Positions 1 through 50,647 are shown, counted from the first letter of the stretch. The stretch: 50,647 bases of DNA from a virus (IMGVR_UViG_3300036781_000493:1-50647); one strand, 5' to 3'. The notes: generated from the sequence alone by a model not told the origin. Program-made: numbers and translations.

Positions 1-127
1 ATCGATTGAATCCATGTTGAGTTCTCCGGAAGCTCAAGCGGTGGCTCCGCGAACGTTCCTTTGAATCGAATTCCTGTTTTCGGATCAGCTTCTTTCATCG
101 GCGATCCGCCACCGACTCTATCGATCT
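1..127. repeat. 127-bp terminal direct repeat, copy 1 (circular assembly overlap)
   Basis: Identical to 50521-50647; lies inside a continuous ORF. Confidence 0.95.
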
Positions 128-887
128 TCTGACGAAAATCAATTTCGAACTTGCCTTGAATGTTGATTTGCATCCAGCCAACTTCATTGAAGAATTTGCT
201 CATGGCGAATCCATGAGGCTTGGAGCAAGAAGAAACCGAGGTGATGTTCTCCTTGACAATCATGTCTTTGGCTTTAGGGGCCGCAGAACCTCTTGGCTTT
301 TCGAGTCTCTCGTAGTGCTCAGGGTGTGCCTGAACAATAACATGGACTGGGCAGTGTTGTATATAACTACCGAGTAGATTCGCCCGTCGACTCGCATCAC
401 CGTAAGCAGCTTGCCCTCCTTCATTGAAGGTTTCAAACGAGACTCCATTGCGCTTTGCTGAGTCTTGGAGGAGTTGAAGCATCGCCGCAGTCCAGGAATC
501 GAGGACGATGATAATTCCGTAAGGTACGTTGGTGGTTCGAATTTGCAGAATCGTGTCGGTAGGGAGAGGCGCACCTTGACCATATGGCATCTCCAGTCTT
601 TTGTTCCAGCGAAAGAGTCGTTTCGTGTGGAATGCACCGAACAATTCAATAGCGAAGTCATATGGCATATGGGTCGCAACATAATGCGTTCTGCCCATGG
701 CCTCAGGGCTGTGCTTGATTCTTTTCTTGACAGTGCTCAAACCATTGTCAGCGTCGATATAAAGAACTGTGAATCCATCCAAGATCGCATCCGCTACCCA
801 ATCGGTCTTGCCGGTTTTACTTGCTCCAACCAACAGAAGATGAACTGGTGATGGAGTCTCGGGTTCGTCCTGTAGAGTAGTTGACAC
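1..887 (-). CDS. P-loop ATPase, AAA_24/Sak4-like; 5' part of a 344-aa gene that continues across the junction to 50373
   Basis: Manual translation of 96-422 and 801-887 in one frame: GTG at 887 with AAGGA upstream, VHLLLVGASKTGKT Walker A, later HVIVQAHPEHY; in frame with 50373..50618; missing from the ORF track because it wraps. Confidence 0.85.
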   Translation of the reverse strand, partial: MSTTLQDEPETPSPVHLLLVGASKTGKTDWVADAILDGFTVLYIDADNGLSTVKKRIKHSPEAMGRTHYVATHMPYDFAIELFGAFHTKRLFRWNKRLEMPYGQGAPLPTDTILQIRTTNVPYGIIIVLDSWTAAMLQLLQDSAKRNGVSFETFNEGGQAAYGDASRRANLLGSYIQHCPVHVIVQAHPEHYERLEKPRGSAAPKAKDMIVKENITSVSSCSKPHGFAMSKFFNEVGWMQINIQGKFEIDFRQKIDRVGGGSPMKEADPKTGIRFKGTFAEPPLELPENSTWIQS

Positions 888-919
888 GATCTTGGTATCC
901 TTATGATTCAGTAATGAAC

Positions 920-936
920 GTTAATGGAGTCTTAAC
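920..936. promoter_or_regulatory. CtrA-binding box (GTTAA-N7-TTAAC) with GANTC in the spacer
   Basis: GTTAA TGGAGTC TTAAC matches TTAA-N7-TTAAC on both strands, about 30 bp upstream of the ATPase/SSB/polymerase operon. Confidence 0.65.
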
Positions 937-1426
937 GCTCTATCGAGGTTTCATTCATGATCATGGCACGATCCATGATCTCCTGTTCCATGTGCATTGC
1001 GTCATCTGCGAGTCGCTTATTGAGCGGAACGACCGAAGCGCTTTTCAATCCTTTGAATCGCCGAGTCCCTTCCAGTGCAGCAACATTTCCAGTCTTAACA
1101 TACTCTGAAACCGCGTCTTTGTCAAGACCCCCCGCAATTTTCTCCAAGTAGTCTGAGTCACTCGACGCCTCACCGCTGGCTTCCGATGCAGGCTTACCCG
1201 TCATCACTCTCGGCTCAAGATCATGAGCGACAGCGATGTTGTATGGAATCCTGACGAGGCACTTCACTCGATCATAAGACAGCGGCTGAAAATTGTTGAC
1301 TGGAGTCAAATCCACGATGTCATCCGTGTCGATACGGATTTTGCCGACCATTGAGTCGGTGACAGTGAATACAGCGCGCGAGCGAGTGATCGAGTGCAGG
1401 AACAGATAAACTTGAACGTCTTTCAT
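932..1426 (-). CDS. hypothetical protein
   Basis: 164-aa ORF with GGAG RBS, in the minus-strand gene chain. Confidence 0.75.
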   Translation of the reverse strand: MKDVQVYLFLHSITRSRAVFTVTDSMVGKIRIDTDDIVDLTPVNNFQPLSYDRVKCLVRIPYNIAVAHDLEPRVMTGKPASEASGEASSDSDYLEKIAGGLDKDAVSEYVKTGNVAALEGTRRFKGLKSASVVPLNKRLADDAMHMEQEIMDRAMIMNETSIER

Positions 1427-1492
1427 TGAGTCTCTCCAGGGTTGAATCCGAGTGATAAAAGCTGAGTGGCTGGATTAGTTCCGCTCAGAAAC

Positions 1493-1645
1493 TTAAAGCC
1501 AGAGTCCCCAAGGGCTAGCAAGCCCCTGAATGAATCGAATGAGCCAGACAACAGCGAGAGTTGCGCAGGCTACGCAAGTGATGACTGTGATGAAGGCAAC
1601 GATAGATTCGACAATGAGTAGAATCCACTTAAAGATTTTACTCAT
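1493..1645 (-). CDS. small membrane protein (50 aa)
   Basis: MSKIFKWILLIVESIVAFITVITCVACATLAVVWLIRF is hydrophobic; start overlaps the end of the upstream gene. Confidence 0.55.
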   Translation of the reverse strand: MSKIFKWILLIVESIVAFITVITCVACATLAVVWLIRFIQGLASPWGLWL

Positions 1646-2018
1646 TGAACTTAATCCGCAGCATTGCCACGCAGAACTTGTGCCGCTGCTGTTGAGTCTG
1701 CAGCTTCTCAGTGATGAACTGATCGGCCTGCAAAAGCACCTCAGCATAGACTCTATCGACGCTATCGACATTGAGTCCCTGAATGAGGATGGCGGCGGTG
1801 ATAGCATTCTGCGTGTCGGTGTCGGTGAACGGCTTGATCGAGCAAACTCGATTCGCTGCGATCATGCCAACCGAGGAAGTCAGATATTCGACTGCGAGTC
1901 GATTGACTCCAGGCGGAAGACTTGTTTCCTCCGCCTTAGCCGGTTTCAAGATAGCCGCTGTGAGGGCAACGCTGGCCGCTGCCAATGCTATCAAATGCCA
2001 ATTGAGTCTCATTGCCAT
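1638..2018 (-). CDS. hypothetical exported protein
   Basis: N-terminal signal-peptide-like segment ending AKA; AGGAG RBS. Confidence 0.7.
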   Translation of the reverse strand: MAMRLNWHLIALAAASVALTAAILKPAKAEETSLPPGVNRLAVEYLTSSVGMIAANRVCSIKPFTDTDTQNAITAAILIQGLNVDSVDRVYAEVLLQADQFITEKLQTQQQRHKFCVAMLRIKFNE

Positions 2019-2023
2019 ATCTC

Positions 2024-2446
2024 CTACTCGTTATTGGTTTTGGAGAGAGCAGCTTCTTCTCGAGTCACCTCATCCAACTTTTGGCCGCCACTGTCAAGCC
2101 AGAGTTGGAATCTTTCATCCCATGTCTTACCCATTCTAAAGGCTTGCAGCCGGCAGATTGGCATGAGATTCATGAGCTTTTCGATATCATCGACTCCGTA
2201 AATTATCATCACGGAGTCCAATTGCTGTCGAAGAGAGATCGTCGTGTCGGTCTCATCTTCCATGGTGACTTGCTCAGGAATCAACTGCAAAGTTGTGTGA
2301 GCGATCTTACAAAAATAGGCGGCGGCATGCGAATAGAATCGCATATCGCCATCGGGCAAGAGTCCGCCTTCAGCCTGCGTCCAACCGTGCATGATCGGAC
2401 CAATCAGGATGGCATGTCCTTCAAGGGTTTCTCGATTCTTGGCCAT
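2024..2446 (-). CDS. hypothetical protein
   Basis: 140-aa ORF with TGATG coupling to the upstream gene. Confidence 0.75.
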   Translation of the reverse strand: MAKNRETLEGHAILIGPIMHGWTQAEGGLLPDGDMRFYSHAAAYFCKIAHTTLQLIPEQVTMEDETDTTISLRQQLDSVMIIYGVDDIEKLMNLMPICRLQAFRMGKTWDERFQLWLDSGGQKLDEVTREEAALSKTNNE

Positions 2447-2865
2447 CAGACTACCGGAATCTCATGACGCGCAACCAGTTTCCTGATATTACGCTCAGCG
2501 AGGTGATCGAAAGAGAGTCCAAAGAAAGTGAGGGCTTCACTGAGATAGTAAAGTGCGTCCCCCATTTCATCCAGAATCTTTGTCTTTCTTTCTGCCGACA
2601 CGGTCATCTTTCCTTTGGAATCCATGGCCCAGTCCTCCTCACGAATCACCTTGCCGAGTTCGTCGGCCACTTCACCAGCTTCACCCGCCAGTTTCAGGAA
2701 CACGTAACATGCACCTTCGAAAGAATCGGGACGGTTGGTAGTCCGCATCGACCTAGTGAATGCCTGATAAGCATCGAGCGTATGGTATTCACCCTTGTTG
2801 TCGAGTGCGTTGAATTTTTCGACTCTCAAGGCAACGAGGGTTTTATCGAGTGGTTTCTTGGTCAT
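2446..2865 (-). CDS. mazG: MazG-like nucleotide pyrophosphohydrolase
   Basis: LAGEAGEVADELGK...ILDEMGDALYY...NIRKL motifs; start reassigned to MTKK at 2865. Confidence 0.85.
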   Translation of the reverse strand: MTKKPLDKTLVALRVEKFNALDNKGEYHTLDAYQAFTRSMRTTNRPDSFEGACYVFLKLAGEAGEVADELGKVIREEDWAMDSKGKMTVSAERKTKILDEMGDALYYLSEALTFFGLSFDHLAERNIRKLVARHEIPVV

Positions 2866-2869
2866 GACT

Positions 2870-3847
2870 CTAGGCCTCCAATACCCAGTAGGGTTCATAA
2901 ATGCGCGACTCCTTACGGAAGTCTTGACGCTCTGCAGCGAACCAATTCTGCAAAAATTCCGGTTCACGACGATGGCACACATCCAGGAATCCGCATGGTG
3001 TGCCATAGAACGAGCAGCCGTGAGAACGACGTGGCCAGAATCCTCTCTGGCCCATGTCAATCATTCTACGGAGACGTTCGTTCTTTGCTTCAATAGATTC
3101 GAATATCTCATCAGACTCCAAATGGTATGTCTGAGGGTTTGTCTCCGGAAGTCCATGCTCCCCGAATTCGGCGATGAAATACGTAACATCCATCCCTTCT
3201 TCTCGCCACGGGAGTCCAATGGCTTCACTGAGAACGAAACCGTATTGTCCTGCCTGCCCAGAGAATCGAAAACTTGCCTGTTGAGCTTGCTCTCCCAGAA
3301 TCGTGGTTTTAAGGTCACAAACCATGTATCGGTTTCGTTGCCGACGATGACGGAGAACCCAATCGATCTTCCCTTGAGTCGCAAGGTAAACCGGTGTTCC
3401 ATGAACAGGGTGCGGGAAGCTTCCAAGTGAAATATGATCGATTCGCCAGGGCAATTCAATAGCATATTTGCCATCCGGAAGCCGAGCCACTTCCCAATCC
3501 TGCCAAAAGGAATCGTTTCGAATTGCTTCAAGTAGAAGGAATGCGTTGCCGAGAGTTCGCCGGTGATCAATAAGCCCCGAGTCACGTCGTTTATCCTCCA
3601 GTTTCCAAGGCCAAAATTTGAGCAGAGTCAAATCACTGGCAGTGATGTTACCTTCCTTTGTCCACTCCTGAGTGGCCTCATGAAGGGCGGTTCCTACCTC
3701 AGCCGCGAGTCCCATTGTTTCTTGAAGAGGAAACTCTTCATAGATGTGACGGAACTCAAAGCGTCGAGGGCAAGACTCAAAGGTGCCATCAATAGAATGG
3801 GAAGTGATGATGTATCTGGGCTTCGGTGGGTTGACAAGCTGAGCCAT
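2870..3847 (-). CDS. PD-(D/E)XK exonuclease (AddB/Cas4-like, probable Fe-S cluster)
   Basis: SHS..FESCPRRF, GTALHE, GKID, CDLKT, QY motifs and C-terminal C-x6-C-x5-C. Confidence 0.85.
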   Translation of the reverse strand: MAQLVNPPKPRYIITSHSIDGTFESCPRRFEFRHIYEEFPLQETMGLAAEVGTALHEATQEWTKEGNITASDLTLLKFWPWKLEDKRRDSGLIDHRRTLGNAFLLLEAIRNDSFWQDWEVARLPDGKYAIELPWRIDHISLGSFPHPVHGTPVYLATQGKIDWVLRHRRQRNRYMVCDLKTTILGEQAQQASFRFSGQAGQYGFVLSEAIGLPWREEGMDVTYFIAEFGEHGLPETNPQTYHLESDEIFESIEAKNERLRRMIDMGQRGFWPRRSHGCSFYGTPCGFLDVCHRREPEFLQNWFAAERQDFRKESRIYEPYWVLEA

Positions 3848-3848
3848 T

Positions 3849-5616: not shown

Positions 5617-7677
5617 CTACCGATTGCCTATTTCGTACGAAAAGGTATTTTGCGTGTCATCGAATTCTTCGATGCTAAGTGGTACGTTAACTCGGAGACG
5701 AACCCCCGGCGCCACTTGCTTACCCTCAGTGGCCATCTTACGATACGACTCGACTTTTTCCGCAATGGTGCGTCCAAAAATCTTTTGTTTCTGAATAGCG
5801 TGGTTAAGACCACTTGTCGTATAGAGTATGATGACTCTCTTAGTCGCACGAGTGATAGCTGTGTATAGCCACTCTCGGCACAGTTGTTGCTTCTGACCAT
5901 GGTGTACGATGATAATAGCAGTATCGAACTGCGAGCCTTGGCATTTAGCGACGGTGGAGCAGAACGCCAAGTGTAAGGACTCAACACCGGCTTTTGATGA
6001 GAAAGTGCGTGACGCGCCGTTATCGAATTTAACAACGACCGAGTGGGATGCAAGCCCGCCGCCTTCCGCGTCATCTTCTTCGTCGTCCTCATGATTGAAT
6101 CCCTCAGCGTTGATGTCATCAAAATCGGTATTGGCCAGCGCGTCAAGGTCGTCTAGGGCTTTCGTTCGGCCAAGGTTGATATGAGCAATACGAGTCCGTA
6201 CCTCAACTTGCACTTCATCCTCAGCACCGAAAAGCTTATAGTCGCCTGAGTATTTGACATTGCGGAAAATGTCTTGGATGACTCCAGTCATCCCATTAGT
6301 GACTCTCTCATCCTTATCCGGAGCTTCATTCTTTGTAGCCATGACACGAAGTCCGACTCCGAACTTAGGCTGTCGGCGGCCCGCATCGATGATGTACCGA
6401 ACGTGGCCTTCCTTTGGTGGTTGAATCAAGATGCTGAGAGCCTCATTCAATGGAGCTTGCTGAACCATTGAGGTGTCAACGGAGTCATCAAACCCATTTC
6501 CAGCCGTCATTACCCGGTCCCGATATGGATCGTAAACGAGTGGACTCGTCGGATCGCTTTCGTCTATCCTGCGTGTTCGGACCTGTTGAAGAATAGCGAG
6601 AATCTGTTGTTGTGCTTTCCTTGGATTCCCGTCCAATTCGAACCCAGCCACTCGCCAGTCCGGATTGTCTTTTGTAGTATCGAATGTTGGGCGCTTTCCG
6701 TTCAGCACCTGATGGGCCACTTCCACGATTCGATTCGCTCCGGCCTCCTTCTGCCTGTGCACTTTCGTTAGCTCGAACACGGGCCACCGCGAGAGCGCAT
6801 ACGCGAAGACAGGTTGGCCAATGATTGGAGGTAGCTGATTCAAATCCCCGGTCATATACACACGGGTTCCCGGTTTCAGGGCAGCTAAGAGTTGCTTCCA
6901 TAGGTCGAGTCCTACCATTGATGCTTCATCGATGATGACTACATCGTGTTCGCATTTGTTAGTGTTGTGGCGGGTGGGCACAAAGATTCGAGTCTTCTTG
7001 CCGGTCTTAGTGGAAATGGTTTCCTCCGGCTTGAATTCTAAAAAGCCATGTATTGTCTTACAAGCTGCTCCCATCCAATCTGGCTGGTTGTACTTGATGA
7101 CTTGGCTTGCCATCCCTGTGAATGCAATGAGAGCGATGTTGAGTCCTTGCCCTCCTGGAAGCTGTCGTACATGAATAATGTTCCCTCCTGACTCTGTGAC
7201 TCCGTAGATGAGTTCTTGGAGCACAAATTTCTGGACGGTAGTCTTTCCCGTTCCAGCCGCGCCAATAAGGCAAGCGTACTGATGTTTGACAAGCTGCCGG
7301 ACAGCCTCAGCTTGAGACTCATCGAGTTCGATGTCCGTGGGAGCAAGTCCGGAACTTTCAGCCGGTGGGACTCTGAATCCATGATAAACTGCACCATCGA
7401 TGTCGTAGTCTCTATCTTCATATTCGCGGTGCGAGTCATCGATCGAATCCTCTCTGTCAATATCTCGAACTGAGTTGAATGCTTCCTCGTCCTTGACGAT
7501 CTGTTCGGCGACGATTTCGGAAGATTCAAGAATCTCAGCGACAATTTCGTTTACTTTGTCCTCTTCCGGTTTGGTGAGGGCAATGGTTGACTCAAGCTCA
7601 CGTGCCTGTTCCAGAAAGGATTTGCGGGCAAGCGCACGGGCAAAGAGAGAGTTGTTACGTGGCATTGGATTCGACAT
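5617..7677 (-). CDS. RecD/Dda-like SF1B DNA helicase
   Basis: GAAGTGKTT, IIDEASM, GDLNQLPPI, LTKVHRQ, TVAKCQGSQF, WLYTAITRA motifs. Confidence 0.93.
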   Translation of the reverse strand: MSNPMPRNNSLFARALARKSFLEQARELESTIALTKPEEDKVNEIVAEILESSEIVAEQIVKDEEAFNSVRDIDREDSIDDSHREYEDRDYDIDGAVYHGFRVPPAESSGLAPTDIELDESQAEAVRQLVKHQYACLIGAAGTGKTTVQKFVLQELIYGVTESGGNIIHVRQLPGGQGLNIALIAFTGMASQVIKYNQPDWMGAACKTIHGFLEFKPEETISTKTGKKTRIFVPTRHNTNKCEHDVVIIDEASMVGLDLWKQLLAALKPGTRVYMTGDLNQLPPIIGQPVFAYALSRWPVFELTKVHRQKEAGANRIVEVAHQVLNGKRPTFDTTKDNPDWRVAGFELDGNPRKAQQQILAILQQVRTRRIDESDPTSPLVYDPYRDRVMTAGNGFDDSVDTSMVQQAPLNEALSILIQPPKEGHVRYIIDAGRRQPKFGVGLRVMATKNEAPDKDERVTNGMTGVIQDIFRNVKYSGDYKLFGAEDEVQVEVRTRIAHINLGRTKALDDLDALANTDFDDINAEGFNHEDDEEDDAEGGGLASHSVVVKFDNGASRTFSSKAGVESLHLAFCSTVAKCQGSQFDTAIIIVHHGQKQQLCREWLYTAITRATKRVIILYTTSGLNHAIQKQKIFGRTIAEKVESYRKMATEGKQVAPGVRLRVNVPLSIEEFDDTQNTFSYEIGNR

Positions 7678-8863: not shown

Positions 8864-9088
8864 TTAAAAGGAGATTCGCTTAACTGCGAAGTCAATGCTT
8901 CGATTCCCTGCCCATATGGCAAATTTGGAAAAGGATACTCTCCCTTCATGAGTGCCAAGATCGAATAGGCGAGTCTTATTATCCTCTGATTCGCCATCAT
9001 TGAAGATTACGACCATGTGAAGGCTCTGAGTCATCTCAGGCTTTGTAGTCTTGGATTCAGTAACAGTTTGCATTTGCGGATTTCCCAT
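8864..9088 (-). CDS. hypothetical protein
   Basis: 74-aa ORF just downstream of a predicted promoter. Confidence 0.6.
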   Translation of the reverse strand: MGNPQMQTVTESKTTKPEMTQSLHMVVIFNDGESEDNKTRLFDLGTHEGRVSFSKFAIWAGNRSIDFAVKRISF

Positions 9089-9176: not shown

Positions 9177-10040
9177 TCAAAAATCTACCTGATTTGGCCC
9201 AAATCTACCCGGTTTTTTAGAATTTTTTTCTACTTTCCCTTCCAATGCCTGAATCTCTTTCTCGACAACCGCGTCTCGAATCTGCCTGCGAAGCAAATGA
9301 AAATCCTCAAATACCAATTGCGGATTCTGCCTTACGGCAGCCTTGGCCTCCATGTAAGCAAGAGCCCAATTATTGGCCGTAGTCGTGTTAAGAAATCTGA
9401 ACAATAGACGATTGATCTTGATGAGTCGATTATCATCAGCGAATAGATTCCAAGCGGGTATTCCGTATCCCGCCAAGAACTCGGCTCTTTCGCGAATTTG
9501 ACTTTGACTCGAAACCGGATCAATATCAGCCCACCAATACTTCCCGAGGATCTGGGACTCGCTAAGATCAGACCTTTGAACCCTGGCCCGGATTGCAGTA
9601 GAGGCCTGGCTTTTAGTATCGAGTCTCGCAATGTATACTTCGCCCCAAACAAGTCTGCCGGTTGAATCCCTGGCATGGTGCTTAGACTTCGTAGAAAGTG
9701 AGCTAAGGCGTCTTCCTGACTCTTGAATCCCCCCACCGGTTTCGTCCTCCATGGATATTGATGGTAAAAATGGCAAAATGAAAGTCTTTGAGTGCATGTG
9801 ACCGATTCGACACAGCCTATCCCAAGCATGAATCGTTGCTGGGCGTGGCTGCGGAATCAACTCATCGCTAAAGAAGAACTGTCCGGGGTGTTCACCCAAA
9901 AAATTCCCAGGTTGATTCGTGATGTGCAAGCCAAAAGCAATGAGGGAAGTGCGCAGCTCTGGAGTCTCCCATCCCTGAATATATGATGACTCAGGGATAG
10001 GGAACCATTGGGAATTGAGATTATGGTAAAGAATCGACAT
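9177..10040 (-). CDS. hypothetical protein
   Basis: 287-aa ORF, TAATG coupling; contains WWADID. Confidence 0.8.
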   Translation of the reverse strand: MSILYHNLNSQWFPIPESSYIQGWETPELRTSLIAFGLHITNQPGNFLGEHPGQFFFSDELIPQPRPATIHAWDRLCRIGHMHSKTFILPFLPSISMEDETGGGIQESGRRLSSLSTKSKHHARDSTGRLVWGEVYIARLDTKSQASTAIRARVQRSDLSESQILGKYWWADIDPVSSQSQIRERAEFLAGYGIPAWNLFADDNRLIKINRLLFRFLNTTTANNWALAYMEAKAAVRQNPQLVFEDFHLLRRQIRDAVVEKEIQALEGKVEKNSKKPGRFGPNQVDF

Positions 10041-11388: not shown

Positions 11389-12400
11389 CTTTCATATCCT
11401 GAATCCGCTCACGAAACAATGACGTGAGGCTTTTGTCGTTAGAAGTGTTCTCATGCAGAAATGACATGAGAGTCGAGAACAGTTCGTTTGGAAGAGTCTG
11501 CAAGCGATCGTCAAGGGCGAGAATAATTTTCTTCGCCACATCGTCAATGTCAGACTCAAATGAAATTTGAATCGCTTTACGATGGATTTGCATATCTTCT
11601 TTCGAAAATACTCGATAGCCATGCTTATGCATGAATACTTTCATATCATCGAAGCTATCGAGTGTTCGAATCGCATGCCACTGCTCACCATTGAATCGCG
11701 TGTCGACCACAGGCGCGGGAGTGTCATCAACCGTACTGATACCTGCACTGATATCCTGATTATTCTCCTTGTGTATTTGAGTCAAAATCTCATTCATTTG
11801 CAGATTCTGGCCTCGAACTCGGTCCATGTCGTTCTGATCGAGTGGGATGAAAACATCAGAAGTAAGCGATAACGGTGCAGGCGTTGGAATCCCACCAGGT
11901 GCACCAATTACGTGGGTATGATCTAGTGCCCGATCGAATGGTTTCAGGTCGGCTGCAGTCGGCACTGGATTCAGTAAATGAGGAGCGATTGAGACAGTGT
12001 TCGGGTCGAAAGGCTGAATCGGTTTCTGGATTGCCTTGATTCGTCCATTCTCAATTAGCACTTGAAGCCCAGGCCCTGTTGAGTGCATGCACCCATACTC
12101 ATAACCAGGAATCCAAGTGTAAGTAGCCTCGAATCCCAGACGAGTAAATTTCAACGGCAAATTGAAACGCGGCCCCATCACATAAAAATAACCTTCTTCG
12201 AGCAAGACTCGATACTTAAGACTCTGTTCATTAACTGGTGTCAACCAGTCAGAGTCGCTTTCAAGTCTCATGTCTCGAATCCATGCAGGTTGCATGTGAT
12301 ATGGAGTGTTCATCGAGTGGGTATAGAAGGCAATGATCGAGTGATCATGGTTGGCACGTGCGAATCCGCAATTCTCGGTAATATGTTCAGGCATTTTCAT
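11201..12400 (-). CDS. hypothetical protein
   Basis: 399-aa ORF, ATGA overlap, GGAG RBS. Confidence 0.8.
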   Translation of the reverse strand: MKMPEHITENCGFARANHDHSIIAFYTHSMNTPYHMQPAWIRDMRLESDSDWLTPVNEQSLKYRVLLEEGYFYVMGPRFNLPLKFTRLGFEATYTWIPGYEYGCMHSTGPGLQVLIENGRIKAIQKPIQPFDPNTVSIAPHLLNPVPTAADLKPFDRALDHTHVIGAPGGIPTPAPLSLTSDVFIPLDQNDMDRVRGQNLQMNEILTQIHKENNQDISAGISTVDDTPAPVVDTRFNGEQWHAIRTLDSFDDMKVFMHKHGYRVFSKEDMQIHRKAIQISFESDIDDVAKKIILALDDRLQTLPNELFSTLMSFLHENTSNDKSLTSLFRERIQDMKDGLAKQIQAAANFEDSEGAGSSFREVAETQGQSSGEEAVADSARNEKSPSIIGDNDGPYSSH

Positions 12401-12759
12401 TCTCCAGCTTTAAGTTCAAGGGCCGTCGACTCATCGAACTCGCGAATCACTCTTTTAATCATCGAGCGGAGCAACTCAGCTCTTGTGATCTGCTTTTCCT
12501 TCGCGATTTCGATCAATCGATCTCGATCTGATTCAATAACATGCACACCGATCTCACAGTTGAAAGGGGCGTGCGGAGCATAAATGTCAAGGGCAATTAA
12601 CTTTGCACGAATCGAATGTTGAGAACGCTTTAGGATAATTGCCATTGACTGAGTCATCAGCCCGTCTGCATGCATTTCACGCAAGTGGCGAAGCTCGGAC
12701 TGCTTCCATCCCATGTGCAGCTTGGAATTGTCGATAATGATTCTGGCTGGTTTGGACAT
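12397..12759 (-). CDS. DNA-binding protein: divergent GcrA/Myb-like HTH plus ribbon-helix-helix
   Basis: WKQSELRHLREMHADGL...LKRSQHSIRAKL followed by IGVHVIESDRDRLIEIAKEKQITRAELLRSMI. Confidence 0.7.
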   Translation of the reverse strand: MSKPARIIIDNSKLHMGWKQSELRHLREMHADGLMTQSMAIILKRSQHSIRAKLIALDIYAPHAPFNCEIGVHVIESDRDRLIEIAKEKQITRAELLRSMIKRVIREFDESTALELKAGE

Positions 12760-13121: not shown

Positions 13122-13153
13122 TTGACTCTCCAATTTTTTCATTTATTCCCACA

Positions 13154-13181
13154 ATTTTAAACTATTTCTTTGCGAAGTCAA
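13154..13181 (-). promoter_or_regulatory. sigma70-type promoter for the leftward arm
   Basis: Minus strand TTGACT-N16-TAAAAT. Confidence 0.5.
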
Positions 13182-15997: not shown

Positions 15998-16063
15998 TGG
16001 GAAGACAGCAATAGGGCTGTTTCACTCGATCACTCGATCACTCGATCAAAAGGACTCAATCTA

Positions 16064-26677: not shown

Positions 26678-26679
26678 TC

Positions 26680-33309: not shown

Positions 33310-33321
33310 GGCAGAATTCGA

Positions 33322-33945: not shown

Positions 33946-33961
33946 TTCTTAGGAGATTAAA

Positions 33962-44131: not shown

Positions 44132-44134
44132 GTC

Positions 44135-44166
44135 AAAAAAGAAGGGAGCCATTAGGCTCCCTTTTC
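44135..44166. terminator. bidirectional terminator between the convergent arms
   Basis: AAAAAAGAAGGGAGCC-atta-GGCTCCCTTTT. Confidence 0.8.
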
Positions 44167-45627
44167 AATTACTTTAAATTTATCTTTTTTATTTACTTTC
44201 CAGGGCCGGAACTCATCCGGTTGTGGAGTCGTTCTTTCGAACGTTTGTGAGTCAACTCCGAACCCATCGGTCAAAAGCGCTAAAGCTTTCTCTTGGGCCG
44301 TTGTGTTGAACGTCCATTTATCTTGACGTTTGTGGACTCCAGCTTCCGTCAGTTTTCCCTGCTCTGATAGAGACGTCATCATGCGAGTGATGGATTCACG
44401 ATCGGCAAGGTGCCCCGCATGACTTTGCATCATGGCTAGGTCAACTTCGTTATTGGACGATCCTTCGATCAACTCGGCAGCCGCGCATAGCACCTTGGAA
44501 TAGACGCCTGTTTCTAGGCCATAGTAGGCCCGTGGCATAAGCATTTCGGTAAGGCATAGGATAACGTGCGCCAAACGCACATCGCTTGCTATGACCTCTG
44601 TGTGGGCGCCTGAGCCACGCATTAGGGCCAATAGGGCGCTAACCTTGAGCATGTGCTCCGCACGTCGCCCGGAATAGGCTTGCATCCTCACATCAGCGAG
44701 TGGCGGCTGATACCCATACAAATCTGTATAAGTCTTTGTGGCACTCTCTGTGAGAGTCAATGACTGATGGCTTTCTTCCATAGCAGCTCGAATGCGATCA
44801 TGGAGTCCATTCTTGACGGCTTCCTGTTGCTTGGTCCAATTTGTTGGAATCGGCACAGCCTTGGAAATAACATCGCTATGAACGAACACAAGCCTGCTCA
44901 GGAATCCATGCTCACTTGCTCCCCTTGGCATCATGTGGCCAAGTGAACTCGGAGTTGTCGCGCCAATGATATTCACCATTGGTTTGTTGATGCGAGTGTT
45001 TTGACTCTTGAGCTGATAATGAATGCTATTGCCGTCGAGTGCGTCATTGAAGAAGTCAAGAAGCTCTCTGGTCGTGGAGGCAATGAGCCGACCGAGTTCT
45101 TTGGCCACGAAATAAATTTCACTGGAGCTTCCTACCTCAATGGAATCCACTCCAGCTTGTACATGATCAGTATCCAAATTAGCAAAGTCATCCAAAGTGC
45201 TAATTCTCTGCTGAATCGCATCTTTATCATCGGACGGCCCTTTCTGCCACTTTGGCGTCATTGCAGCCATGAGTCCCTGGCGCTGCCCAGCCGTATCCGT
45301 CGGACCATAGGCAATCGGAAGACCTTCAGCGAATCGCTGCATCATGGAAAGAGCGGTGGACTTTCGGAGGGCTGGAGCGCCGGTCAGGACAATTCCAAGA
45401 TTGAGTCTAAGCTGGCCCAATGGGCCGTGATTCAGAGTGATCCTGCTTCCGCAGAGAGCCGCTGTCAAAGACAAAAAGCTCCAGATGTTGTAGGGGACGG
45501 GTGACTCAAGTCCCTCAGTCAACTTCAGATAGTCTTTAATCGCTTGGCTTGAATGACTGTATCTCGGATCGTCTAGGCAGCTCAACCACACCTCATAAGG
45601 TGAGGAGCTTTGTGTCAACGAATCCAC
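44152..45627 (-). CDS. DUF3987-like AAA+ ATPase, putative replicative helicase
   Basis: ESP..Y..W, LTGAPALRKST, IIGATTP, GFLSRLVFV motifs. Confidence 0.75.
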   Translation of the reverse strand: MDSLTQSSSPYEVWLSCLDDPRYSHSSQAIKDYLKLTEGLESPVPYNIWSFLSLTAALCGSRITLNHGPLGQLRLNLGIVLTGAPALRKSTALSMMQRFAEGLPIAYGPTDTAGQRQGLMAAMTPKWQKGPSDDKDAIQQRISTLDDFANLDTDHVQAGVDSIEVGSSSEIYFVAKELGRLIASTTRELLDFFNDALDGNSIHYQLKSQNTRINKPMVNIIGATTPSSLGHMMPRGASEHGFLSRLVFVHSDVISKAVPIPTNWTKQQEAVKNGLHDRIRAAMEESHQSLTLTESATKTYTDLYGYQPPLADVRMQAYSGRRAEHMLKVSALLALMRGSGAHTEVIASDVRLAHVILCLTEMLMPRAYYGLETGVYSKVLCAAAELIEGSSNNEVDLAMMQSHAGHLADRESITRMMTSLSEQGKLTEAGVHKRQDKWTFNTTAQEKALALLTDGFGVDSQTFERTTPQPDEFRPWKVNKKDKFKVIEKGA

Positions 45628-46184
45628 CCACGACGTTCGAGTGCGGCAATAAGCTTACCGTAAAGTTCATTTGAGTCTTTTGCTACGATTGCACACTTAT
45701 GAGCAAGGTTGACTCGACTGTCACCAGGAGTCCAGAGCTCACCACGCGGAGGAGATCCGGGGGGTTCAATACAGCAAGTAAGCAAATCAATCTCTTCGCG
45801 TCCACGAAGAAAATCAATTTCAACTTCAAAGCCATTGGAATCAGCAACGAACAAAGGCACAAAATGCTTTTGATCATTTGCTCTAATCAGTAATTGACTC
45901 AACATAACTTTACTAAAAAAATTAGGGTCTATTGGTTTTGCCAGTTCTTCCGAAATTTTAATCATCCAGGCACGACCTGTGAGTCCAAGAAAATTTGATA
46001 TTTTAAATTGATCGTAATCCATTCCAGTGACACCCAAAAGTGCCATCGTAGCGATTCGAAGAGGATCCTGAAAACTGACTCGTTCTACTCTTGTGTACGA
46101 ACTAGCAGAAAGAAACCCTTCAAGCTTGTTAGCTGTCCAGGATTTGCCCGAGCCCAGCGGACCATTAATTGTAACGAGTCGCAT
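45615..46184 (-). CDS. deoxynucleoside monophosphate kinase-like
   Basis: INGPLGSGKS P-loop, SFQDPLR, GRAWMI, DSNGFEVE; start at 46184 with GGAGG RBS. Confidence 0.75.
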   Translation of the reverse strand: MRLVTINGPLGSGKSWTANKLEGFLSASSYTRVERVSFQDPLRIATMALLGVTGMDYDQFKISNFLGLTGRAWMIKISEELAKPIDPNFFSKVMLSQLLIRANDQKHFVPLFVADSNGFEVEIDFLRGREEIDLLTCCIEPPGSPPRGELWTPGDSRVNLAHKCAIVAKDSNELYGKLIAALERRGWIR

Positions 46185-46215
46185 GATTCCCTCCAAGGAT
46201 TCAAAGAATATATAG

Positions 46216-46257
46216 AAAAAGCGGCCGAGGTGAATTGCGGAAAACTCCTCGGCCGCT
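46216..46257 (-). terminator. Rho-independent terminator
   Basis: AGCGGCCGAGG/CCTCGGCCGCT stem with a T-tract on the minus strand; second hairpin at 46261-46294. Confidence 0.65.
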
Positions 46258-46295
46258 CTATCAATCAAGACACTGCGGCGGTAGTCTTGACTGAA

Positions 46296-46523: not shown

Positions 46524-46599
46524 TGGAGTCTCCTTTCGTCCAGTTGAGAGGGCAACGGAATTAGTTTACAGTGTCGGAAAATTGCACGATAGCATAAGT

Positions 46600-48681
46600 T
46601 CAGTAATATTTCAGATTATTTTCATCCAGCCATGGAGTCAAATCATCAACAGTTTTGACACCCACTCCCTTGGCTCCCCAGGCAATACTGGCATCACCTT
46701 CAATGCCGACCTTGACCACCTCTCCGTGAATGATGATTGGGCGTTTGAAACTCTTATAGATTCGCTCCACGCCCTCTCTCCAACGATTATGGCGAGGGTC
46801 GATATTAAAGGTAATTGAATCGTGGGTCTGGAGTCGCACTGAGCAGCCGTTAAGAGTCGATGACACCAAGCATGGCTCGTCACCGTAGTTAGGGTTCTCA
46901 CCATCACGCAGGTATCTAGGAATATAGCCGTGCAACAACTCATCCATAACCATGTTGATTCTGCCAGCTGTTCCGGCTTGACCTGCTGTGGCCGCCACTG
47001 CTCGAAGCGTTGAGTCATCATAAGGATCAGAAAGGAATCGCTGGAGATACCGAAATGGCGTGAGGAAGCCACCCGTGCGAACAACTTCTTGTCGAAGGTC
47101 GCGATACCAAGAATCAGCGCTATCTTCGATACGTTTGAAGCGAGAGTAATGCGATCGGAATGCATGATCCAAGTCGTCACAAAAGATGATGAGTCTTTCT
47201 TGAGTCCAACTACCAGCATCATGGAATCCAGATTCGAGCGCCGCTGCAACAATTGCTTCCCTCCCTGCGTTCATATAGAGAGTCATGGCTGCCATTAGAT
47301 AGTGACAGCCATGAACTACCTTCTTGGTTATTTGTCTGATTCCGGTGATGGGGTGGACGACTTTCGGGTCTTCGGCTTTTTTGCCTTCGACGATTCCGTC
47401 GTATGTCCAGTTTTTGAAGAAGATGAGGGCGTTCGTGGCGTGTGAATCTCGTCCGGACAAAACAAGGTCAATTTTTTTCCGCTCACCTGATTCGTAGGCG
47501 ACGAAGACGTCGTCGGCCGCTGAGTAATCGACTTCGAGAAGAAAGCATCCATCATCCGCTTTTGCGAATCGACGATACTTCTTTCGAACATTTTGAGCAT
47601 TACCTCCATGACCAAAGGCGGAACCTCGTGATGAATAACGGGTGGTGGTGGTGCCAACTCCGTCGTACGAAGTAAGGAATCTGCTTCCTGTCGATCCAGC
47701 CCTGAATCTAGCAAGGCCGACAACATTAGAAATTTGCTTGGCGGGTTCGATGGCGGCAAGAGTAGCATCAGCGACTCGCCGGAGAATAGGGTGCTCACTT
47801 CGCATGATCCGCAATGGAGTCTTACCAGTTGATGCGTCCGCAATGTTTCGGACGGCTCGTCCTTTGGCGTTTTTGAGCTTTGCTCCAAGGATTCCGTGGA
47901 AGAGTTCTCGCTTTTGGAGATATGAATTCGGGTTGAATTCTGGGTCGGCGACAAGATTCCTAAGCGTTGAAAGAGCGTTTGCAGCTTCGACATCCAACTG
48001 TTCCTTTATTTGAGTCATCACTGTCTCATCAACTGCGATTCCTAAAGCACTCATGTGGAGGCCCGATAAGCATCGCATGTGAGCATGGAAGAAGTTGAGT
48101 CGCATGGCCTCATCATTGGCTGCCATCTCAATCAACTTCAATGTGTTGAGGAGAGTGGACTCAGTATCAGACATAGCGTAGTTCTGATACTCAACCCAGT
48201 CATCACTCTTTCGATCACCCTTCCAATACTGATAGTGATCTAATAGTACGGATGATATAAAGTCCAGTCGCTTAGGTAGGTCAGGGAATCTTGACCACCA
48301 AAGCGACATGGAATCGTATGCATAGTTCTTGACAGGCAAACCATAAAACAGCTTCCATGCCAAGTCATACACGCCATTCTGGTAGGTCTTTGGGATATCT
48401 GTCTGTCCGAGTTGTAGACTCGTGTCATATATGTACTCGATATCCGGTGGTGCGCCAGAGGCAGCCGACTTGGATTGGAGGAAAGGAAGCGAGAATGAAT
48501 AGAGTTTATCATCGATGAGTCCCGTCCAAGCGTCAACTGTCATGCAGAATGGATTTTTCTTTTTCTTATCGTAGGGAATCGTCTCAATGTCGTTGGCGTT
48601 CAGAGTTGATTCTTTGAGGGTGTCGATTGCATCACGGCAAGCGTAACGATCCCAGCAGATGACACGTTGAGTCTCAAGCAT
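46600..48681 (-). CDS. polA: family A DNA polymerase with 3'-5' exonuclease
   Basis: Exo motifs DIET, QNGVYD, YAMSD; polymerase motifs TTTRYSS, NAQN, DYSAAD, RQITKKVVHGCHY, THDS. Confidence 0.93.
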   Translation of the reverse strand: MLETQRVICWDRYACRDAIDTLKESTLNANDIETIPYDKKKKNPFCMTVDAWTGLIDDKLYSFSLPFLQSKSAASGAPPDIEYIYDTSLQLGQTDIPKTYQNGVYDLAWKLFYGLPVKNYAYDSMSLWWSRFPDLPKRLDFISSVLLDHYQYWKGDRKSDDWVEYQNYAMSDTESTLLNTLKLIEMAANDEAMRLNFFHAHMRCLSGLHMSALGIAVDETVMTQIKEQLDVEAANALSTLRNLVADPEFNPNSYLQKRELFHGILGAKLKNAKGRAVRNIADASTGKTPLRIMRSEHPILRRVADATLAAIEPAKQISNVVGLARFRAGSTGSRFLTSYDGVGTTTTRYSSRGSAFGHGGNAQNVRKKYRRFAKADDGCFLLEVDYSAADDVFVAYESGERKKIDLVLSGRDSHATNALIFFKNWTYDGIVEGKKAEDPKVVHPITGIRQITKKVVHGCHYLMAAMTLYMNAGREAIVAAALESGFHDAGSWTQERLIIFCDDLDHAFRSHYSRFKRIEDSADSWYRDLRQEVVRTGGFLTPFRYLQRFLSDPYDDSTLRAVAATAGQAGTAGRINMVMDELLHGYIPRYLRDGENPNYGDEPCLVSSTLNGCSVRLQTHDSITFNIDPRHNRWREGVERIYKSFKRPIIIHGEVVKVGIEGDASIAWGAKGVGVKTVDDLTPWLDENNLKYY

Positions 48682-49325: not shown

Positions 49326-49719
49326 GATTCTTGACCTGAGTATAAACCAAATTGCAAAACACCTCAAGCTCTTTGACCAGCTCGTCGATCACCATCTGAC
49401 TCGAGCGATCAATGGAGAAGTGAGTCCCTACGAAGTGCTGAGGCTGAACAATCAGAAGATTGTCGCAAAGCTGCTTGTTTACCATGATGCAGTCATTGGT
49501 GATTCCAAGAAAGGAAAAGCTCTCCGCAGTCGGGTCATTTTGGAGAGCCGAATATTGATCAGCACTGAGTGAGCAATAAATGCAGAAATAGGAGTCATGA
49601 GACTGAGGCTTGACTCTCTTGACGACAAGCCCAAAGAACATCTGCTTGCCGGCACTGATCAAAGCAGTTGCTCGGTTGTAGCGTTCGTCTCGTTCAATGA
49701 ATCTAAGAATTTCAACCAT
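49312..49719 (-). CDS. hypothetical protein
   Basis: 135-aa ORF in the replication operon. Confidence 0.7.
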   Translation of the reverse strand: MVEILRFIERDERYNRATALISAGKQMFFGLVVKRVKPQSHDSYFCIYCSLSADQYSALQNDPTAESFSFLGITNDCIMVNKQLCDNLLIVQPQHFVGTHFSIDRSSQMVIDELVKELEVFCNLVYTQVKNHEEA

Positions 49720-49743
49720 CTCTGAATCCCTAATGAAATTGAC

Positions 49744-49767
49744 TGGCGGAGATTGCTCCCCGCCAGC
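49744..49767 (-). terminator. GC-rich hairpin after the SSB-like gene
   Basis: CTGGCGG..ttgc..CCGCCAG stem; weak T-tract. Confidence 0.45.
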
Positions 49768-49783
49768 TATTCAGTTCCCTGGA

Positions 49784-50338
49784 TTATGCTGCCTGCGAGT
49801 CCGAGTCGGCTTCGCCGGTGGCGCCGGCTTCACCTTCTTCCAGTGCAAACCAGGAGAAGTTGGCGCGAGTCTCGCCGTTGCGAACAGCATGCTTGATCTT
49901 GAGACCAATGATGCCTTCACGTGCCGAGTCGAGCCAGCCAGGAGCACCGCCTTCGAGGCCGCCGAGACGTCCGACATTTTCAAAGCCGACCTTGGCGTAG
50001 CGACCCTTCAGGAGTCCGATCATGTCATTCATAGCCGACGGCCAGAAGGTGTGACGATCGTTCAGAACCTTGCCCTTGAGTCCTTCGATGTCGACAGTGC
50101 GATCGAGCGGTTCGCCATCGAGAATCTCGTACTTGAAGGCGACGAAGAAGAGCGGGAGGTAGGGTGCGCCAGTCTTCGGATCGATTCCTTCCTTGACGTC
50201 ATTCTCGCCGAGAGCCAGGTCATTGATCTTGACTGCGAAACTGCCAGCCGCCGGAAGCAGCGTGTCCAGTGCCTTGATTTCGTCAGTGACCTGTTCAGAG
50301 AAGTCGGCGAGCGAGAAACCTGCATTCATAGTAGACAT
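49784..50338 (-). CDS. putative single-stranded DNA-binding protein (DUF669-like)
   Basis: LLPAAGSFAVKI start of an OB-like fold, acidic tail; follows the AAA_24 gene as is typical. Confidence 0.6.
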   Translation of the reverse strand: MSTMNAGFSLADFSEQVTDEIKALDTLLPAAGSFAVKINDLALGENDVKEGIDPKTGAPYLPLFFVAFKYEILDGEPLDRTVDIEGLKGKVLNDRHTFWPSAMNDMIGLLKGRYAKVGFENVGRLGGLEGGAPGWLDSAREGIIGLKIKHAVRNGETRANFSWFALEEGEAGATGEADSDSQAA

Positions 50339-50372
50339 GATTCAATCCTTTATCTTGTCTGTTTGGTTGTTG

Positions 50373-50647
50373 TCATTTGCCCGGCATTCTGAAAGTCTTC
50401 TTCGGCGCTGCCGGCTTAGGCGCTGAAGCATCAATGATTCCTGCCGCAACATCCGCTGCATACTTTTCTGCTTTGGCTTTTTCCGCCTCGGCAGCTGCAT
50501 TGCGAATCTCTTGAACAGTCATCGATTGAATCCATGTTGAGTTCTCCGGAAGCTCAAGCGGTGGCTCCGCGAACGTTCCTTTGAATCGAATTCCTGTTTT
50601 CGGATCAGCTTCTTTCATCGGCGATCCGCCACCGACTCTATCGATCT
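50373..50647 (-). CDS. 3' part of the AAA ATPase gene starting at 887
   Basis: Same frame through the circular junction; 1035 nt in total. Confidence 0.8.
   Translation of the reverse strand, partial: IDRVGGGSPMKEADPKTGIRFKGTFAEPPLELPENSTWIQSMTVQEIRNAAAEAEKAKAEKYAADVAAGIIDASAPKPAAPKKTFRMPGK
50521..50647. repeat. 127-bp terminal direct repeat, copy 2
   Basis: Identical to 1-127. Confidence 0.95.

Follow-up and report, generated by a model that had tools for sequence, protein, structure and literature searches.

A genome-wide, regularly spaced GANTC array in an uncultured podovirus-like phage and its relatives

The window analysed here, IMGVR_UViG_3300036781_000493 (50,647 nt), is the complete 50.6 kb genome of an uncultured podovirus-like phage. 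Positions 50521-50647 are identical to 1-127, and the window is therefore a complete, circularly closed assembly, with a unique length of 50,520 bp; IMG/VR places the record in its 'direct terminal repeats' class with completeness 100. We found no close cultured relative of the phage and no tRNA genes in the window. The window sequence occurs in a single run, probably the source sample, which carries the label soil metagenome. The principal features are as follows.

2446..3060, minus strand: MazG-like nucleotide pyrophosphohydrolase domain protein (PF03819, E = 1e-4, 22.9 bits against a 22-bit cut-off)
5617..7677, minus strand: RecD-like superfamily 1 helicase (PF13604, E = 3e-26; PF13538, E = 1.5e-12)
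13143..13730, no strand: divergent intergenic region separating the leftward and rightward gene blocks
17930..19516, plus strand: large terminase, TerL (PF17289, E = 2e-4; orthologues in all relatives)
19527..21506, plus strand: portal protein, assigned by position and orthology, matching Kuura's annotated portal
23139..24338, plus strand: SU10-type major capsid protein, MCP (PF17236, E = 6e-30)
44152..45627, minus strand: DUF3987 primase/helicase-type protein (PF13148, E = 4e-12)
45615..46268, minus strand: deoxynucleoside monophosphate (dNMP) kinase (phrog_139, E = 6e-16)
46600..48681, minus strand: family A DNA polymerase (PF00476, E = 1e-7, below cut-off; orthologous to Kuura's annotated DNA polymerase)
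50521..50647, no strand: 127-bp direct terminal repeat
1..50647, no strand: 827 GANTC sites forming an array whose gaps average 61 bp (median 58 bp) and are more even than expected by chance

The array comprises 824 sites in 1-50520 and three in the terminal repeat 50521-50647, or about one per 60 bases (16 per kb). The original prediction had claimed a 4-5-fold excess from hand counts, and the value over base composition is 4.19-fold; a recount agreed exactly with the hand counts, at 11 sites for 1-600, 11 for 42481-43080 and 8 for 26881-27480 (given as 8-9). The size of the enrichment varies with the null model between 1.4-fold (order-3 Markov) and 4.19-fold, with 2.65-fold over the dinucleotide product. 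In 100 dinucleotide shuffles the count was 313 +/- 17 and never exceeded 347, so that none came to 827. Synonymous-codon shuffles gave 351.5 +/- 12.0 against the 745 observed in genes (2.12-fold, z = 32.8; reached in 0 of 300), and dicodon shuffles, which preserve protein sequence, codon usage and dinucleotides, gave 504.3 +/- 10.1 (1.48-fold, z = 23.7). Disappearance under codon- and dinucleotide-preserving shuffles had been named in advance as grounds for abandoning the idea; the excess survives them (z = 24-33) and is stronger than earlier reported.

The enrichment is specific to this word. Ranked by over-representation, the 1024 5-mers are headed by GACTC, GAGTC, GAATC and GATTC, and among the 256 gapped words of the form XYNZW, GANTC scores 2.65 and the next best 1.34. 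The central base is used near-evenly (196 A, 219 C, 213 G, 199 T), and the flanks of 7,518 pooled sites show only mild avoidance of A at -1 (0.61-fold) and T at +1 (0.68-fold). Every 2 kb along the entire genome holds 25-38 sites, which fall in all three reading frames and are as dense in genes (16.2 per kb) as between them (16.3 per kb). This equal density, together with the use of three frames, indicates that selection acts on DNA and not on protein.

The sites are also ordered. In the window, the coefficient of variation (CV) of the gaps is 0.59 and the Fano factor 0.38 (0.35-0.44 for bins of 250-2000 bp); only 5.2% of its bases are further than 50 bp from the nearest site, where random placement gives 19.5%. 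Site pairs are scarce at 5-21 and 28-37 bp and peak at 22-25 bp, and a ripple of about 13 bp reaches out to about 100 bp, its amplitude larger than in 300 of 300 smooth-gap simulations.

Of 13 relatives whose MCP or TerL identity is 40% or more, 12 share the saturation (13.6-20.0 GANTC per kb), and across the clade a site occurs about once per 50-73 bp, inside and between genes. One relative's bin is labelled Acholeplasmataceae, a likely mis-binning given its GC of 0.55 and phage-sized contig. The sister genome G008, 23 distant relatives and two cultured alphaproteobacterial phages are not saturated. Three genomes, G008, Kuura and CRP-810, are strongly depleted and rank GANTC 254th-256th of the 256 gapped words, in agreement with the earlier remark that phages usually avoid such a site. 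Under synonymous shuffles the eight complete saturated genomes give z = +24 to +44, against -9.0 for G008 and -7.0 for Kuura. The Asp/Glu-Ser dipeptide occurs at 1.3-1.7 times expectation in saturated genomes and at 0.91 and 0.78 in depleted ones; GANTC selection has thus altered proteins too. The saturation trait is clade-limited and deep. Its sister G008 is maximally depleted, and a single switch is compatible with the tree (SH-aLRT 86).

The spacing of the array recurs throughout the clade. Fano factors of 0.23-0.61 and gap CVs of 0.45-0.76 were obtained for 11 genomes, and bases more than 50 bp from a site make up 1-5% of 11 of 12 genomes and 14.6% of G001, where random placement gives 14-26%. 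Two deep subclades have only 15-21% of site positions in common yet repeat the spacing pattern: their pair-correlation curves agree with r = 0.95 over 5-37 bp and 0.59 over 38-120 bp, and their top periods are 12.8 and 13.4 bp. Of the positions that could become GANTC by synonymous change, 40-51% are GANTC in saturated genomes and 4-5% in G008 and Kuura. The share of these reachable positions in use changes with the gap to the closest other site, being 22-27% for 0-21 bp (about equal to the baseline of ~23% worked out from codon shuffles), 60% for 22-25 bp, 30% for 28-37 bp and 84-88% for 48-99 bp. In six core genes, individual sites are conserved about 10-fold above random placement. The even spacing, the spacing pattern and the conservation across the clade are new relative to the original prediction, and they favour an array that acts in cis and carries a bulky occupant over a mere high count.

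Two stretches stand out as the largest interruptions of the array.

44393..44754, no strand: largest GANTC-free island, 361 bp, within the DUF3987 primase/helicase gene
23534..23822, no strand: second-largest GANTC-free stretch, 288 bp, within the major capsid gene

The stretch matching the first island (about aa 270-450) is also the biggest gap in G003 (402 bp), G004 (318 bp) and G005 (369 bp), and in the four genomes pooled none of 35 synonymously reachable positions is used. A search of 44393-44754 found no iterons or AT-rich stretch. The capsid gene of G003 likewise has a gap, of 199 bp, and a further array gap of 201 bp lies at 13564-13765, in or at the divergent intergenic region.

The selected word, GANTC, leaves its central base free and specifies nothing beyond the five positions, as for a CcrM/HinfI-class target, and we searched the phage for a cognate enzyme. 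PF01555, the CcrM-type methyltransferase family, had no match in any of 12 clade records, PF02086 had none in the window, and a Pfam scan of 50 window ORFs returned no methyltransferase family, so that the original statement of no recognisable phage methyltransferase stands. The flank bias proposed at the same time, YGAKTCG, is absent: the extended GcrA motif, YGAKTCG or YGAKTCK, occurs at 52 (plus strand) and 58 (minus strand) of the 827 sites, against about 52 expected. Sites of GcrA-activated promoters were considered and rejected, as the extended motif is not enriched and the sites are uniform through coding DNA.

Four further proteins are encoded on the minus strand.

8864..9088, minus strand: 74-aa protein, function without assignment, at the same genomic place in eight of eight complete saturated genomes (two matches marginal)
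9177..10040, minus strand: 287-aa protein (g9177), in seven of eight complete saturated genomes, missing in G002
12397..12759, minus strand: GcrA-N-like helix-turn-helix protein, tandem paralogue of P0001 (domain HMM E = 6e-9; matches to phrog_323 and phrog_16747)
12771..13142, minus strand: P0001, 123 aa, GcrA-N-like helix-turn-helix with a weak ribbon-helix-helix match, first gene of the leftward early block

Residues 11-73 of P0001 align with profile positions 2-64 of 155 in PF07750 (E = 2.3e-4, 22.0 bits, under the 26.9-bit cut-off); the protein also matches phrog_323 (E = 3.7e-8), and its third match among solved structures is 5yiu, the DNA-binding domain of GcrA (E = 1.3). Base and methyl reading by GcrA is ascribed to R33, N34, I37, G38, H41 and R42 (PMC5887438). 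In the weak alignment of P0001 to GcrA (E = 1.3), R33, G38 and K39 are kept, and N34 is replaced by W, I37 by T, H41 by T and R42 by E. Full membership of the GcrA family was rejected, given the score under the gathering cut-off, the unmatched sigma70-interacting C-terminal domain and the replaced reading residues. Among G001-G008, homologues of both GcrA-N-like genes occur only in G003 and G004. The marginal matches of the 74-aa protein, from iterative profile searches, are those in G006 (E = 2e-4) and G002 (E = 1e-3), and its alignment shows a conserved W-A near the C-terminus; because the G008 contig stops just before the early region, its absence from G008 is uninformative, and a comparison of gene content with this depleted sister fails for the same reason. 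An AlphaFold2 model of the 287-aa protein (pLDDT 67, pTM 0.70) gave no Foldseek match in the PDB at E <= 1e-3 and no Atlas match of at least 0.9, and g9177 and g7835, both conserved early proteins, have no detectable fold relatives.

Based on these results, it is very probable that a selected cis-acting GANTC array exists in this phage, kept by selection on individual sites and on their spacing. The earlier claim of selection is upheld at the level of DNA, and for GANTC itself, by the codon shuffles, the saturation of reachable positions and their distance-dependent use. The array would serve a GANTC-specific protein that is not recognisably phage-encoded. As GANTC with a free central base is CcrM/HinfI-class specificity, a host CcrM-type enzyme is the most likely mechanism; we suggest only tentatively that such an enzyme acts on the array, a link made through motif identity. 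CcrM is described as highly specific for GANTC with a minor central-base preference only (PMC3287173), which agrees with the even use of the four central bases. By binding and methylating each site of the phage DNA, the host enzyme would cover the whole genome almost uniformly with m6A (or with bound protein). The phage might gain from this a shield or a self-mark for its DNA, a means of capturing CcrM or GcrA-RNA polymerase, or another cis function.

Apart from distances of 22-25 bp, new sites are not favoured until about 40 bp from an existing one, which suggests that what matters is how many positions a bulky factor can occupy or read simultaneously. Since close relatives either purge or saturate, a limited-copy, non-cutting reader fits better than a nuclease; a few sites would be harmful, and none or very many would be safe or useful. 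A pure methyl-mark model does not predict the favoured 22-25 bp, the unfavoured 28-37 bp or the ~13-bp ripple. Against the host-CcrM step stand the lack of enrichment of the GcrA-preferred extended motif and the window's GcrA-like proteins, which are absent from six of eight relatives' genomes and have lost the reading residues. A phage enzyme or reader of an unrecognised family, for which g7835 and g9177 are candidates, may take the place of the host enzyme.

Among the alternatives, a lattice for a non-enzymatic GANTC binder that coats or organises the DNA, with methylation irrelevant or secondary, is rather unlikely. The binder could be a host nucleoid-associated or GcrA-type protein or a phage protein of unassigned family, and the hard-core-like spacing, 22-25-bp doublets and ~13-bp ripple do resemble the steric or geometric rules of a bound protein. 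The nucleoid protein EbfC uses a broken palindrome of like form, GTnAC (PMC2665219). Two GcrA-N-like helix-turn-helix proteins are encoded in the window, but in only three of the eight complete saturated genomes (window, G003, G004) are such genes found, and their specificity residues are lost; the 74-aa protein keeps a constant genomic place in all eight, but it lacks a functional assignment, and its matches in two genomes are marginal. The motif is exactly a very common methyltransferase specificity, and we know of no GANTC binder of this non-enzymatic kind. We consider improbable a sponge acting in trans, in which hundreds of replicating genomes, each with about 800 sites, titrate host CcrM or GcrA-RNA polymerase, with the result that cell-cycle transcription in the host stalls or polymerase is diverted to the phage genome. 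Selection for a sponge would be expected to yield a spacing in which as many sites as possible can be filled at once, the none-or-many split of sister lineages fits titration of a limited factor, and GcrA is described as travelling with sigma70 RNA polymerase (PMC5887438). A sponge, however, would depend on the number of sites and would not require each segment to be covered evenly; nor does it predict that particular positions are conserved, and the GcrA-preferred flanks are not enriched.

More doubtful again is an enzyme of the phage's own, of an unrecognised family (a novel methylase, hypermodification enzyme or nickase), with GANTC as its substrate. About half of the early genes lack a family assignment, two conserved early proteins have folds without a match, and the dNMP kinase and MazG-like protein show nucleotide-pool handling. 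Yet no SAM-dependent fold was found, nor any nuclease motif except that of a RecB/Cas4-like PD-(D/E)XK protein, which the depleted sister G008 carries too; the dNMP kinase occurs in eight of eight relatives' genomes searched (G001-G008), depleted G008 included, and no gene is shown to track the saturation trait. It is very improbable that the array has no function and is a by-product of composition, of codon or dipeptide usage, or of mutational or repair bias. GA and TC dinucleotides are enriched 1.26-fold and the order-3 Markov model cuts the excess most, but these dinucleotide biases are largely made by the GANTC sites themselves, and the excess persists under the dicodon shuffle and is just as large in non-coding DNA; it is distance-dependent, under-dispersed and position-conserved, and is reversed in a sister genome with similar proteins. 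The by-product reading is already contradicted by the shuffles, the spacing, the conservation and the sister genome.

Returning to the host-enzyme reading, we propose, with reserve, that in this clade a site of host epigenetic or restriction type ceased to be a liability and became a regular genome-wide lattice, occupied or methylated by a host GANTC-specific protein. The phage would thus 'saturate instead of avoid', for self-marking, shielding or host-factor capture, under a spacing code of 22-25-bp pairs, exclusion to about 40 bp and a ~13-bp ripple, with avoidance having given way to saturation once, at the base of the clade. Saturation runs opposite to what phages usually do with such sites, and the array is not explained by any described mechanism. 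Our literature searches found depletion described but not saturation, consistent with the earlier statement that no description of the strategy was known; if true, it would be previously undescribed.

Phage avoidance of restriction-modification sites resembles the array in its genome-wide selection on a short palindrome of restriction-modification type and in a density that follows phage phylogeny. PMC6286503 is named here as related literature. In the array the sign is reversed (4-fold enrichment), the window count lies above codon-preserving expectation (z = +33 to +36), and the regular spacing is one that avoidance cannot produce. About half of 33 pelagiphages are reported to be GANTC-depleted, clustering by density (PMC9516812), and depletion of this type is also seen in G008, Kuura and CRP-810.

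The CcrM-GcrA module, in which GcrA reads m6A in GANTC (PMC5887438), shares with the array the same 5-bp word and its free central base. Host sites are much sparser, with 2,494 motif instances over both strands reported for one Pelagibacter genome, or about one site per kb (PMC9516812), whereas the array has 16 per kb, runs uniformly across genes and is not enriched in the extended GcrA motif. Five of six phiCbK-like Caulobacter phages are described as encoding a pfam07750 member (PMC3556154), a source from which the word GANTC is absent. As in the window, a GcrA-type N-terminal domain lies in an early phage gene; unlike those homologues, the window's two proteins score under the family cut-off, match profile positions 2-64 only and lack N34, I37, H41 and R42. 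EbfC/YbaB is similar in that a small, dimeric, chromosome-coating protein recognises a broken palindrome of four specified bases with a free centre, GTnAC, although the word differs and the abstract of PMC2665219 does not report genome saturation or spacing order for EbfC.

GANTC is its own reverse complement and therefore has no orientation, which sets it apart from asymmetric words such as Chi, DNA uptake sequences and KOPS. These are short words kept frequent by selection and read in cis by a DNA-tracking machine; they are strand-oriented and unevenly spaced, with one occurrence in roughly every 1-5 kb. Unlike them, the GANTC array is palindromic, recurs once per 60 bp and has short-range order.

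GANTC occurs 827 times in the window, 4.19 times as often as base composition predicts and 2.65 times as often as the dinucleotide product predicts. This agrees with the four- to five-fold excess claimed in the original prediction, whose three hand counts all proved exact on recount. Dinucleotide shuffles gave 313 ± 17 sites, and none of 100 reached the observed number. Within genes, synonymous-codon shuffles yielded 351.5 ± 12.0 sites against 745 observed (reached in 0 of 300; z = 32.8), while codon shuffles that also kept dinucleotides yielded 504.3 ± 10.1 (z = 23.7). The excess therefore persists under the codon- and dinucleotide-preserving check that had been proposed for it, and these nulls are conservative, as codon and dinucleotide usage are partly made by the GANTC sites themselves.

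The enrichment is highly specific. The four GANTC variants are the top four enriched 5-mers, and GANTC leads the gapped tetramers at 2.65, with the runner-up at 1.34. The central base is free in the window, flanking bases have little effect, and the extended GcrA-type motif (YGAKTCG), raised originally as a possible flank bias, showed no enrichment at window sites. Site density is the same in coding (16.2 per kb) and non-coding sequence (16.3 per kb). In five GANTC-rich ("saturated") relatives (G003, G004, G005, G007 and L013) 58-63% of sites have an A or T centre, whereas usage in the window is even; the preferred central base may differ between hosts. Other words also deviate in the window: TCGA and ATCGAT stand at 2.17 and 2.9 times base composition (TCGAT/ATCGA at merely 1.17 times an order-3 Markov model), there is strong under-representation of CTAG (0.30), GTAC (0.29) and the dinucleotide TA (0.52), and CCCGGG, CTATAG and GGTACC do not occur.

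The sites are also spaced far more evenly than chance would allow (gap CV 0.59, Fano factor 0.35-0.44), such that only 5.2% of bases lie more than 50 bp from the nearest GANTC, against 19.5% under random placement. Successive gaps are uncorrelated. When pair distances were pooled over 11 genomes, the curve showed a plateau at 0.3-0.5 of mean density from 5 to 19 bp and dipped to 0.16 at 20 bp. It then rose to a sharp peak at 22-25 bp (1.7 at 24 bp), fell to 0.24-0.5 between 28 and 37 bp, and peaked again near 42, 54, 68, 79, 94 and 106 bp, with 13.1 bp as the leading period. Compared with 300 simulations from the smoothed gap distribution, this ripple exceeded all 300 over 20-200 and 38-200 bp; over 60-200 bp it was not significant (28 of 300 simulations reached it), and the ripple is thus short-range. 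Two deep subclades gave the same curve (r = 0.95 at 5-37 bp and 0.59 at 38-120 bp), their strongest periods being 12.8 and 13.4 bp. Neither global phasing nor a clear helical period of 10.5 bp was seen, and the ripple differs from the helical repeat. Doublets 23-25 bp apart have no other conserved sequence, which rules them out as pieces of a longer repeat.

To express saturation relative to opportunity, we counted positions at which GANTC could be formed by synonymous choice under the encoded protein. Such positions number about 33 per kb in all genomes; the window uses 49% of them, the eight complete saturated genomes (the window and G001-G007) 40-51%, the depleted sister genome G008 5% and the depleted Caulobacter phage Kuura 4%. 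In the two frames that depend on nothing but codon choice, the latter two use 0-2%. Use by distance to the nearest other site, in part a restatement of the gap distribution, was 22-27% at 0-21 bp, close to the 23% that the codon-shuffle ratio gives. It rose to 60% at 22-25 bp, fell to 30% at 28-37 bp, and climbed to 70% at 38-47 bp and 84-88% at 48-99 bp; what this count adds is that unused opportunities are rare inside wide gaps. Asp/Glu-Ser dipeptides occur at 1.3-1.7 times expectation in saturated genomes and at 0.91 and 0.78 in depleted ones, indicating that selection for GANTC has reached the protein sequences.

One region escapes the array. In four saturated genomes the largest gap is a GANTC-free island of 318-402 bp at an equivalent place in the primase/helicase gene:

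Window, 44393-44754
G003, 28236-28638
G004, 16011-16329
G005, 26460-26829

None of its 35 synonymously reachable positions (four genomes together) is used. The island may be a cis element, for example an origin, that needs freedom from an occupant of the array; no iterons were seen in it.

The window spans an entire virus record and carries a direct terminal repeat of 127 bp; its unique length is 50,520 bp and its GC content 0.486. No tRNA or Rfam family was found in it. Its layout and the genes discussed here are:

1-13.1 kb, leftward, gene block 1
13.7-44.1 kb, rightward, gene block 2
44.2-50.6 kb, leftward, gene block 3
2446-3060, MazG-like pyrophosphohydrolase
8864-9088, 74-aa protein
9177-10040 (-), 287-aa early protein
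11201-12400 (-), 399-aa early ORF
12397-12759 (-), early gene with GcrA-N-like helix-turn-helix
12771-13142 (-), tandem paralogue of the preceding gene, encoding a 123-aa protein
45615-46268, dNMP kinase
46600-48681 (-), 693-aa polymerase ORF
48681-49367 (-), 228-aa ORF abutting the polymerase ORF

Recognised structural genes comprise an SU10-type capsid protein, the large terminase, an SU10-type adaptor and a tail lysozyme; replication genes comprise a family A polymerase, a RecD-like helicase and a DUF3987 primase/helicase, and a PD-(D/E)XK nuclease and an AAA_24 ATPase were also recognised. The dNMP kinase, common to saturated and depleted relatives, together with the MazG-like protein suggests recycling or policing of the nucleotide pool. 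A single 788-aa ORF in G008 (31868-34234) matches both the 228-aa and the polymerase ORF of the window, so the polymerase appears either to be divided between two abutting genes in the window or to have become fused in G008. For the 399-aa early ORF, neither Pfam nor PHROG gave a match, and the eight genomes searched (G001-G008) contain no counterpart.

A near-identity DNA search with 25 kb of the window gave no match among cultured phages, and relatives found by capsid protein search, including Kuura and Roseobacter phage CRP-810, were all below 31% identity, placing the window in a clade without a cultured member. The window sequence was found in one run, probably its source sample, which permits no conclusion on habitat. 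Portal, capsid and terminase queries run against IMG/VR, plus one genome-contig scan, returned 13 relatives at 40% or more capsid or terminase identity; 12 of these are saturated.

GANTC density in relatives of the window, with rank among the 256 gapped words
G001-G007 (complete) and L013, L017, L020 (partial): 13.6-18.2 per kb, rank 1 of 256
L041: 20.0 per kb
L044: 16.3 per kb (238 sites in 14,577 bp)
G008: 1.38 per kb, rank 256 of 256, z = -9.0
Kuura: 1.03 per kb, z = -7.0, depleted
CRP-810: 1.82 per kb, depleted

L041, a genome-contig record (49,237 bp, GC 0.548), is filed in a bin labelled uncultured Acholeplasmataceae bacterium. Judged by size and composition, it is more likely a phage genome binned in error than a pointer to the host. 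Among 23 distant terminase relatives at 20-34% identity, density ranges from 0.9 to 4.8 sites per kb. In G008, 53 of 60 sites lie in the frame fixed by an Asp/Glu-Ser pair. A tree of four concatenated proteins, rooted by the long Kuura branch, placed G008 as sister to the eight complete saturated genomes (SH-aLRT 86), and on it one change would suffice to explain the trait. In six core genes, 15-21% of sites fall at the same aligned nucleotide between genomes 37-42% identical in protein, and 29-38% at 55-62% identity, percentages that include sites over conserved residues; random placement would give about 1.5-2%.

We then considered what the phage itself might encode to read these sites. The earlier statement that no phage methyltransferase is recognisable was borne out: PF01555 was absent from all 12 clade records, PF02086 had no match in the window, and 50 window ORFs scanned against Pfam contained no methyltransferase family. 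The tandem GcrA-N-like pair was examined next. A homologue search with the 123-aa member returned only itself; a whole-library HMMER search (E ≤ 1e-3) found 164 proteins with tandem copies of the same helix-turn-helix. Of ten scanned among the 150 matches listed, eight matched the GcrA family PF07750 at E ≤ 1e-3, and four passed its cut-off, solely by adding up repeats. The window pair scores below that cut-off and matches only the N-terminal part of the model, belongs to this broad repeated family, lacks four of the residues that read bases and methyl groups in GcrA, and is confined to three complete saturated genomes out of eight (the window, G003 and G004). Based on this, we do not class the pair as GcrA.

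Searches for a gene that tracks the trait (tblastn and iterative profiles, 62 window ORFs against eight genomes) gave no reliable discriminator; apparent absences in G008 arise because its contig stops exactly at the start of the early region. All eight complete saturated genomes carry the 74-aa protein at one shared genomic position, and seven of them have its 287-aa neighbour. Structure models of the family of this neighbour and of another conserved early protein (g7835, at 7835-8833) had no Foldseek PDB match at E ≤ 1e-3, and an Atlas search with the former gave nothing at 0.9 or above.

The array is a real, highly non-random and clade-conserved genome feature, a cis-acting DNA element under strong selection on both number and spacing. 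It would be acted on by a GANTC-specific factor that is not recognisably phage-encoded. CcrM/HinfI-class enzymes are highly specific with a nearly free centre (PMC3287173). As the array has this same specificity, we place first, tentatively and at rather less than an even chance, dense methylation or occupation of the phage sites by a host CcrM-type enzyme; judged from the motif, CcrM is a plausible candidate. From the spacing rule one would expect either a bulky occupant or some pairwise geometry, and a pure methyl mark fails to explain that rule, which keeps three other readings alive. A lattice of sites for a binding protein is rather unlikely, a sponge titrating CcrM or GcrA-RNA polymerase is less likely again, and a phage enzyme of unrecognised kind acting at GANTC is the most doubtful of the three. 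A cutting enzyme as the reader in hosts of saturated phages is argued against by the all-or-none split between sister lineages, which would instead fit a limiting, non-destructive factor.

GANTC depletion that partitions pelagiphage phylogeny (PMC9516812) and phage GcrA homologues (PMC3556154) are already described. The original prediction knew of no description of saturation, and our literature search likewise found no account of phages enriched in or saturated with GANTC or another recognition site; supplements, including possible per-phage densities in that of PMC9516812, lay outside the search. Excerpts of PMC12570018, PMC8919816, PMC5786225 and PMC9836097 make no mention of GANTC saturation. 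The array is apparently new to the literature. Site density and dispersion suffice to score the trait, so a screen of virus collections could look for further saturated words and hosts.

Phage genomes are expected to lose short palindromes recognised by host enzymes. Here, about half of the protein-neutral GANTC positions are filled and proteins are bent toward more sites. That such a constraint is kept across genomes at about 40% protein identity points to a large fitness effect, through a mechanism nobody has described. Dependence on host CcrM or GcrA would make the array a new way for phages to engage the alphaproteobacterial cell-cycle epigenetic system; a different reader would point to a novel DNA-binding activity that follows a defined spacing rule.
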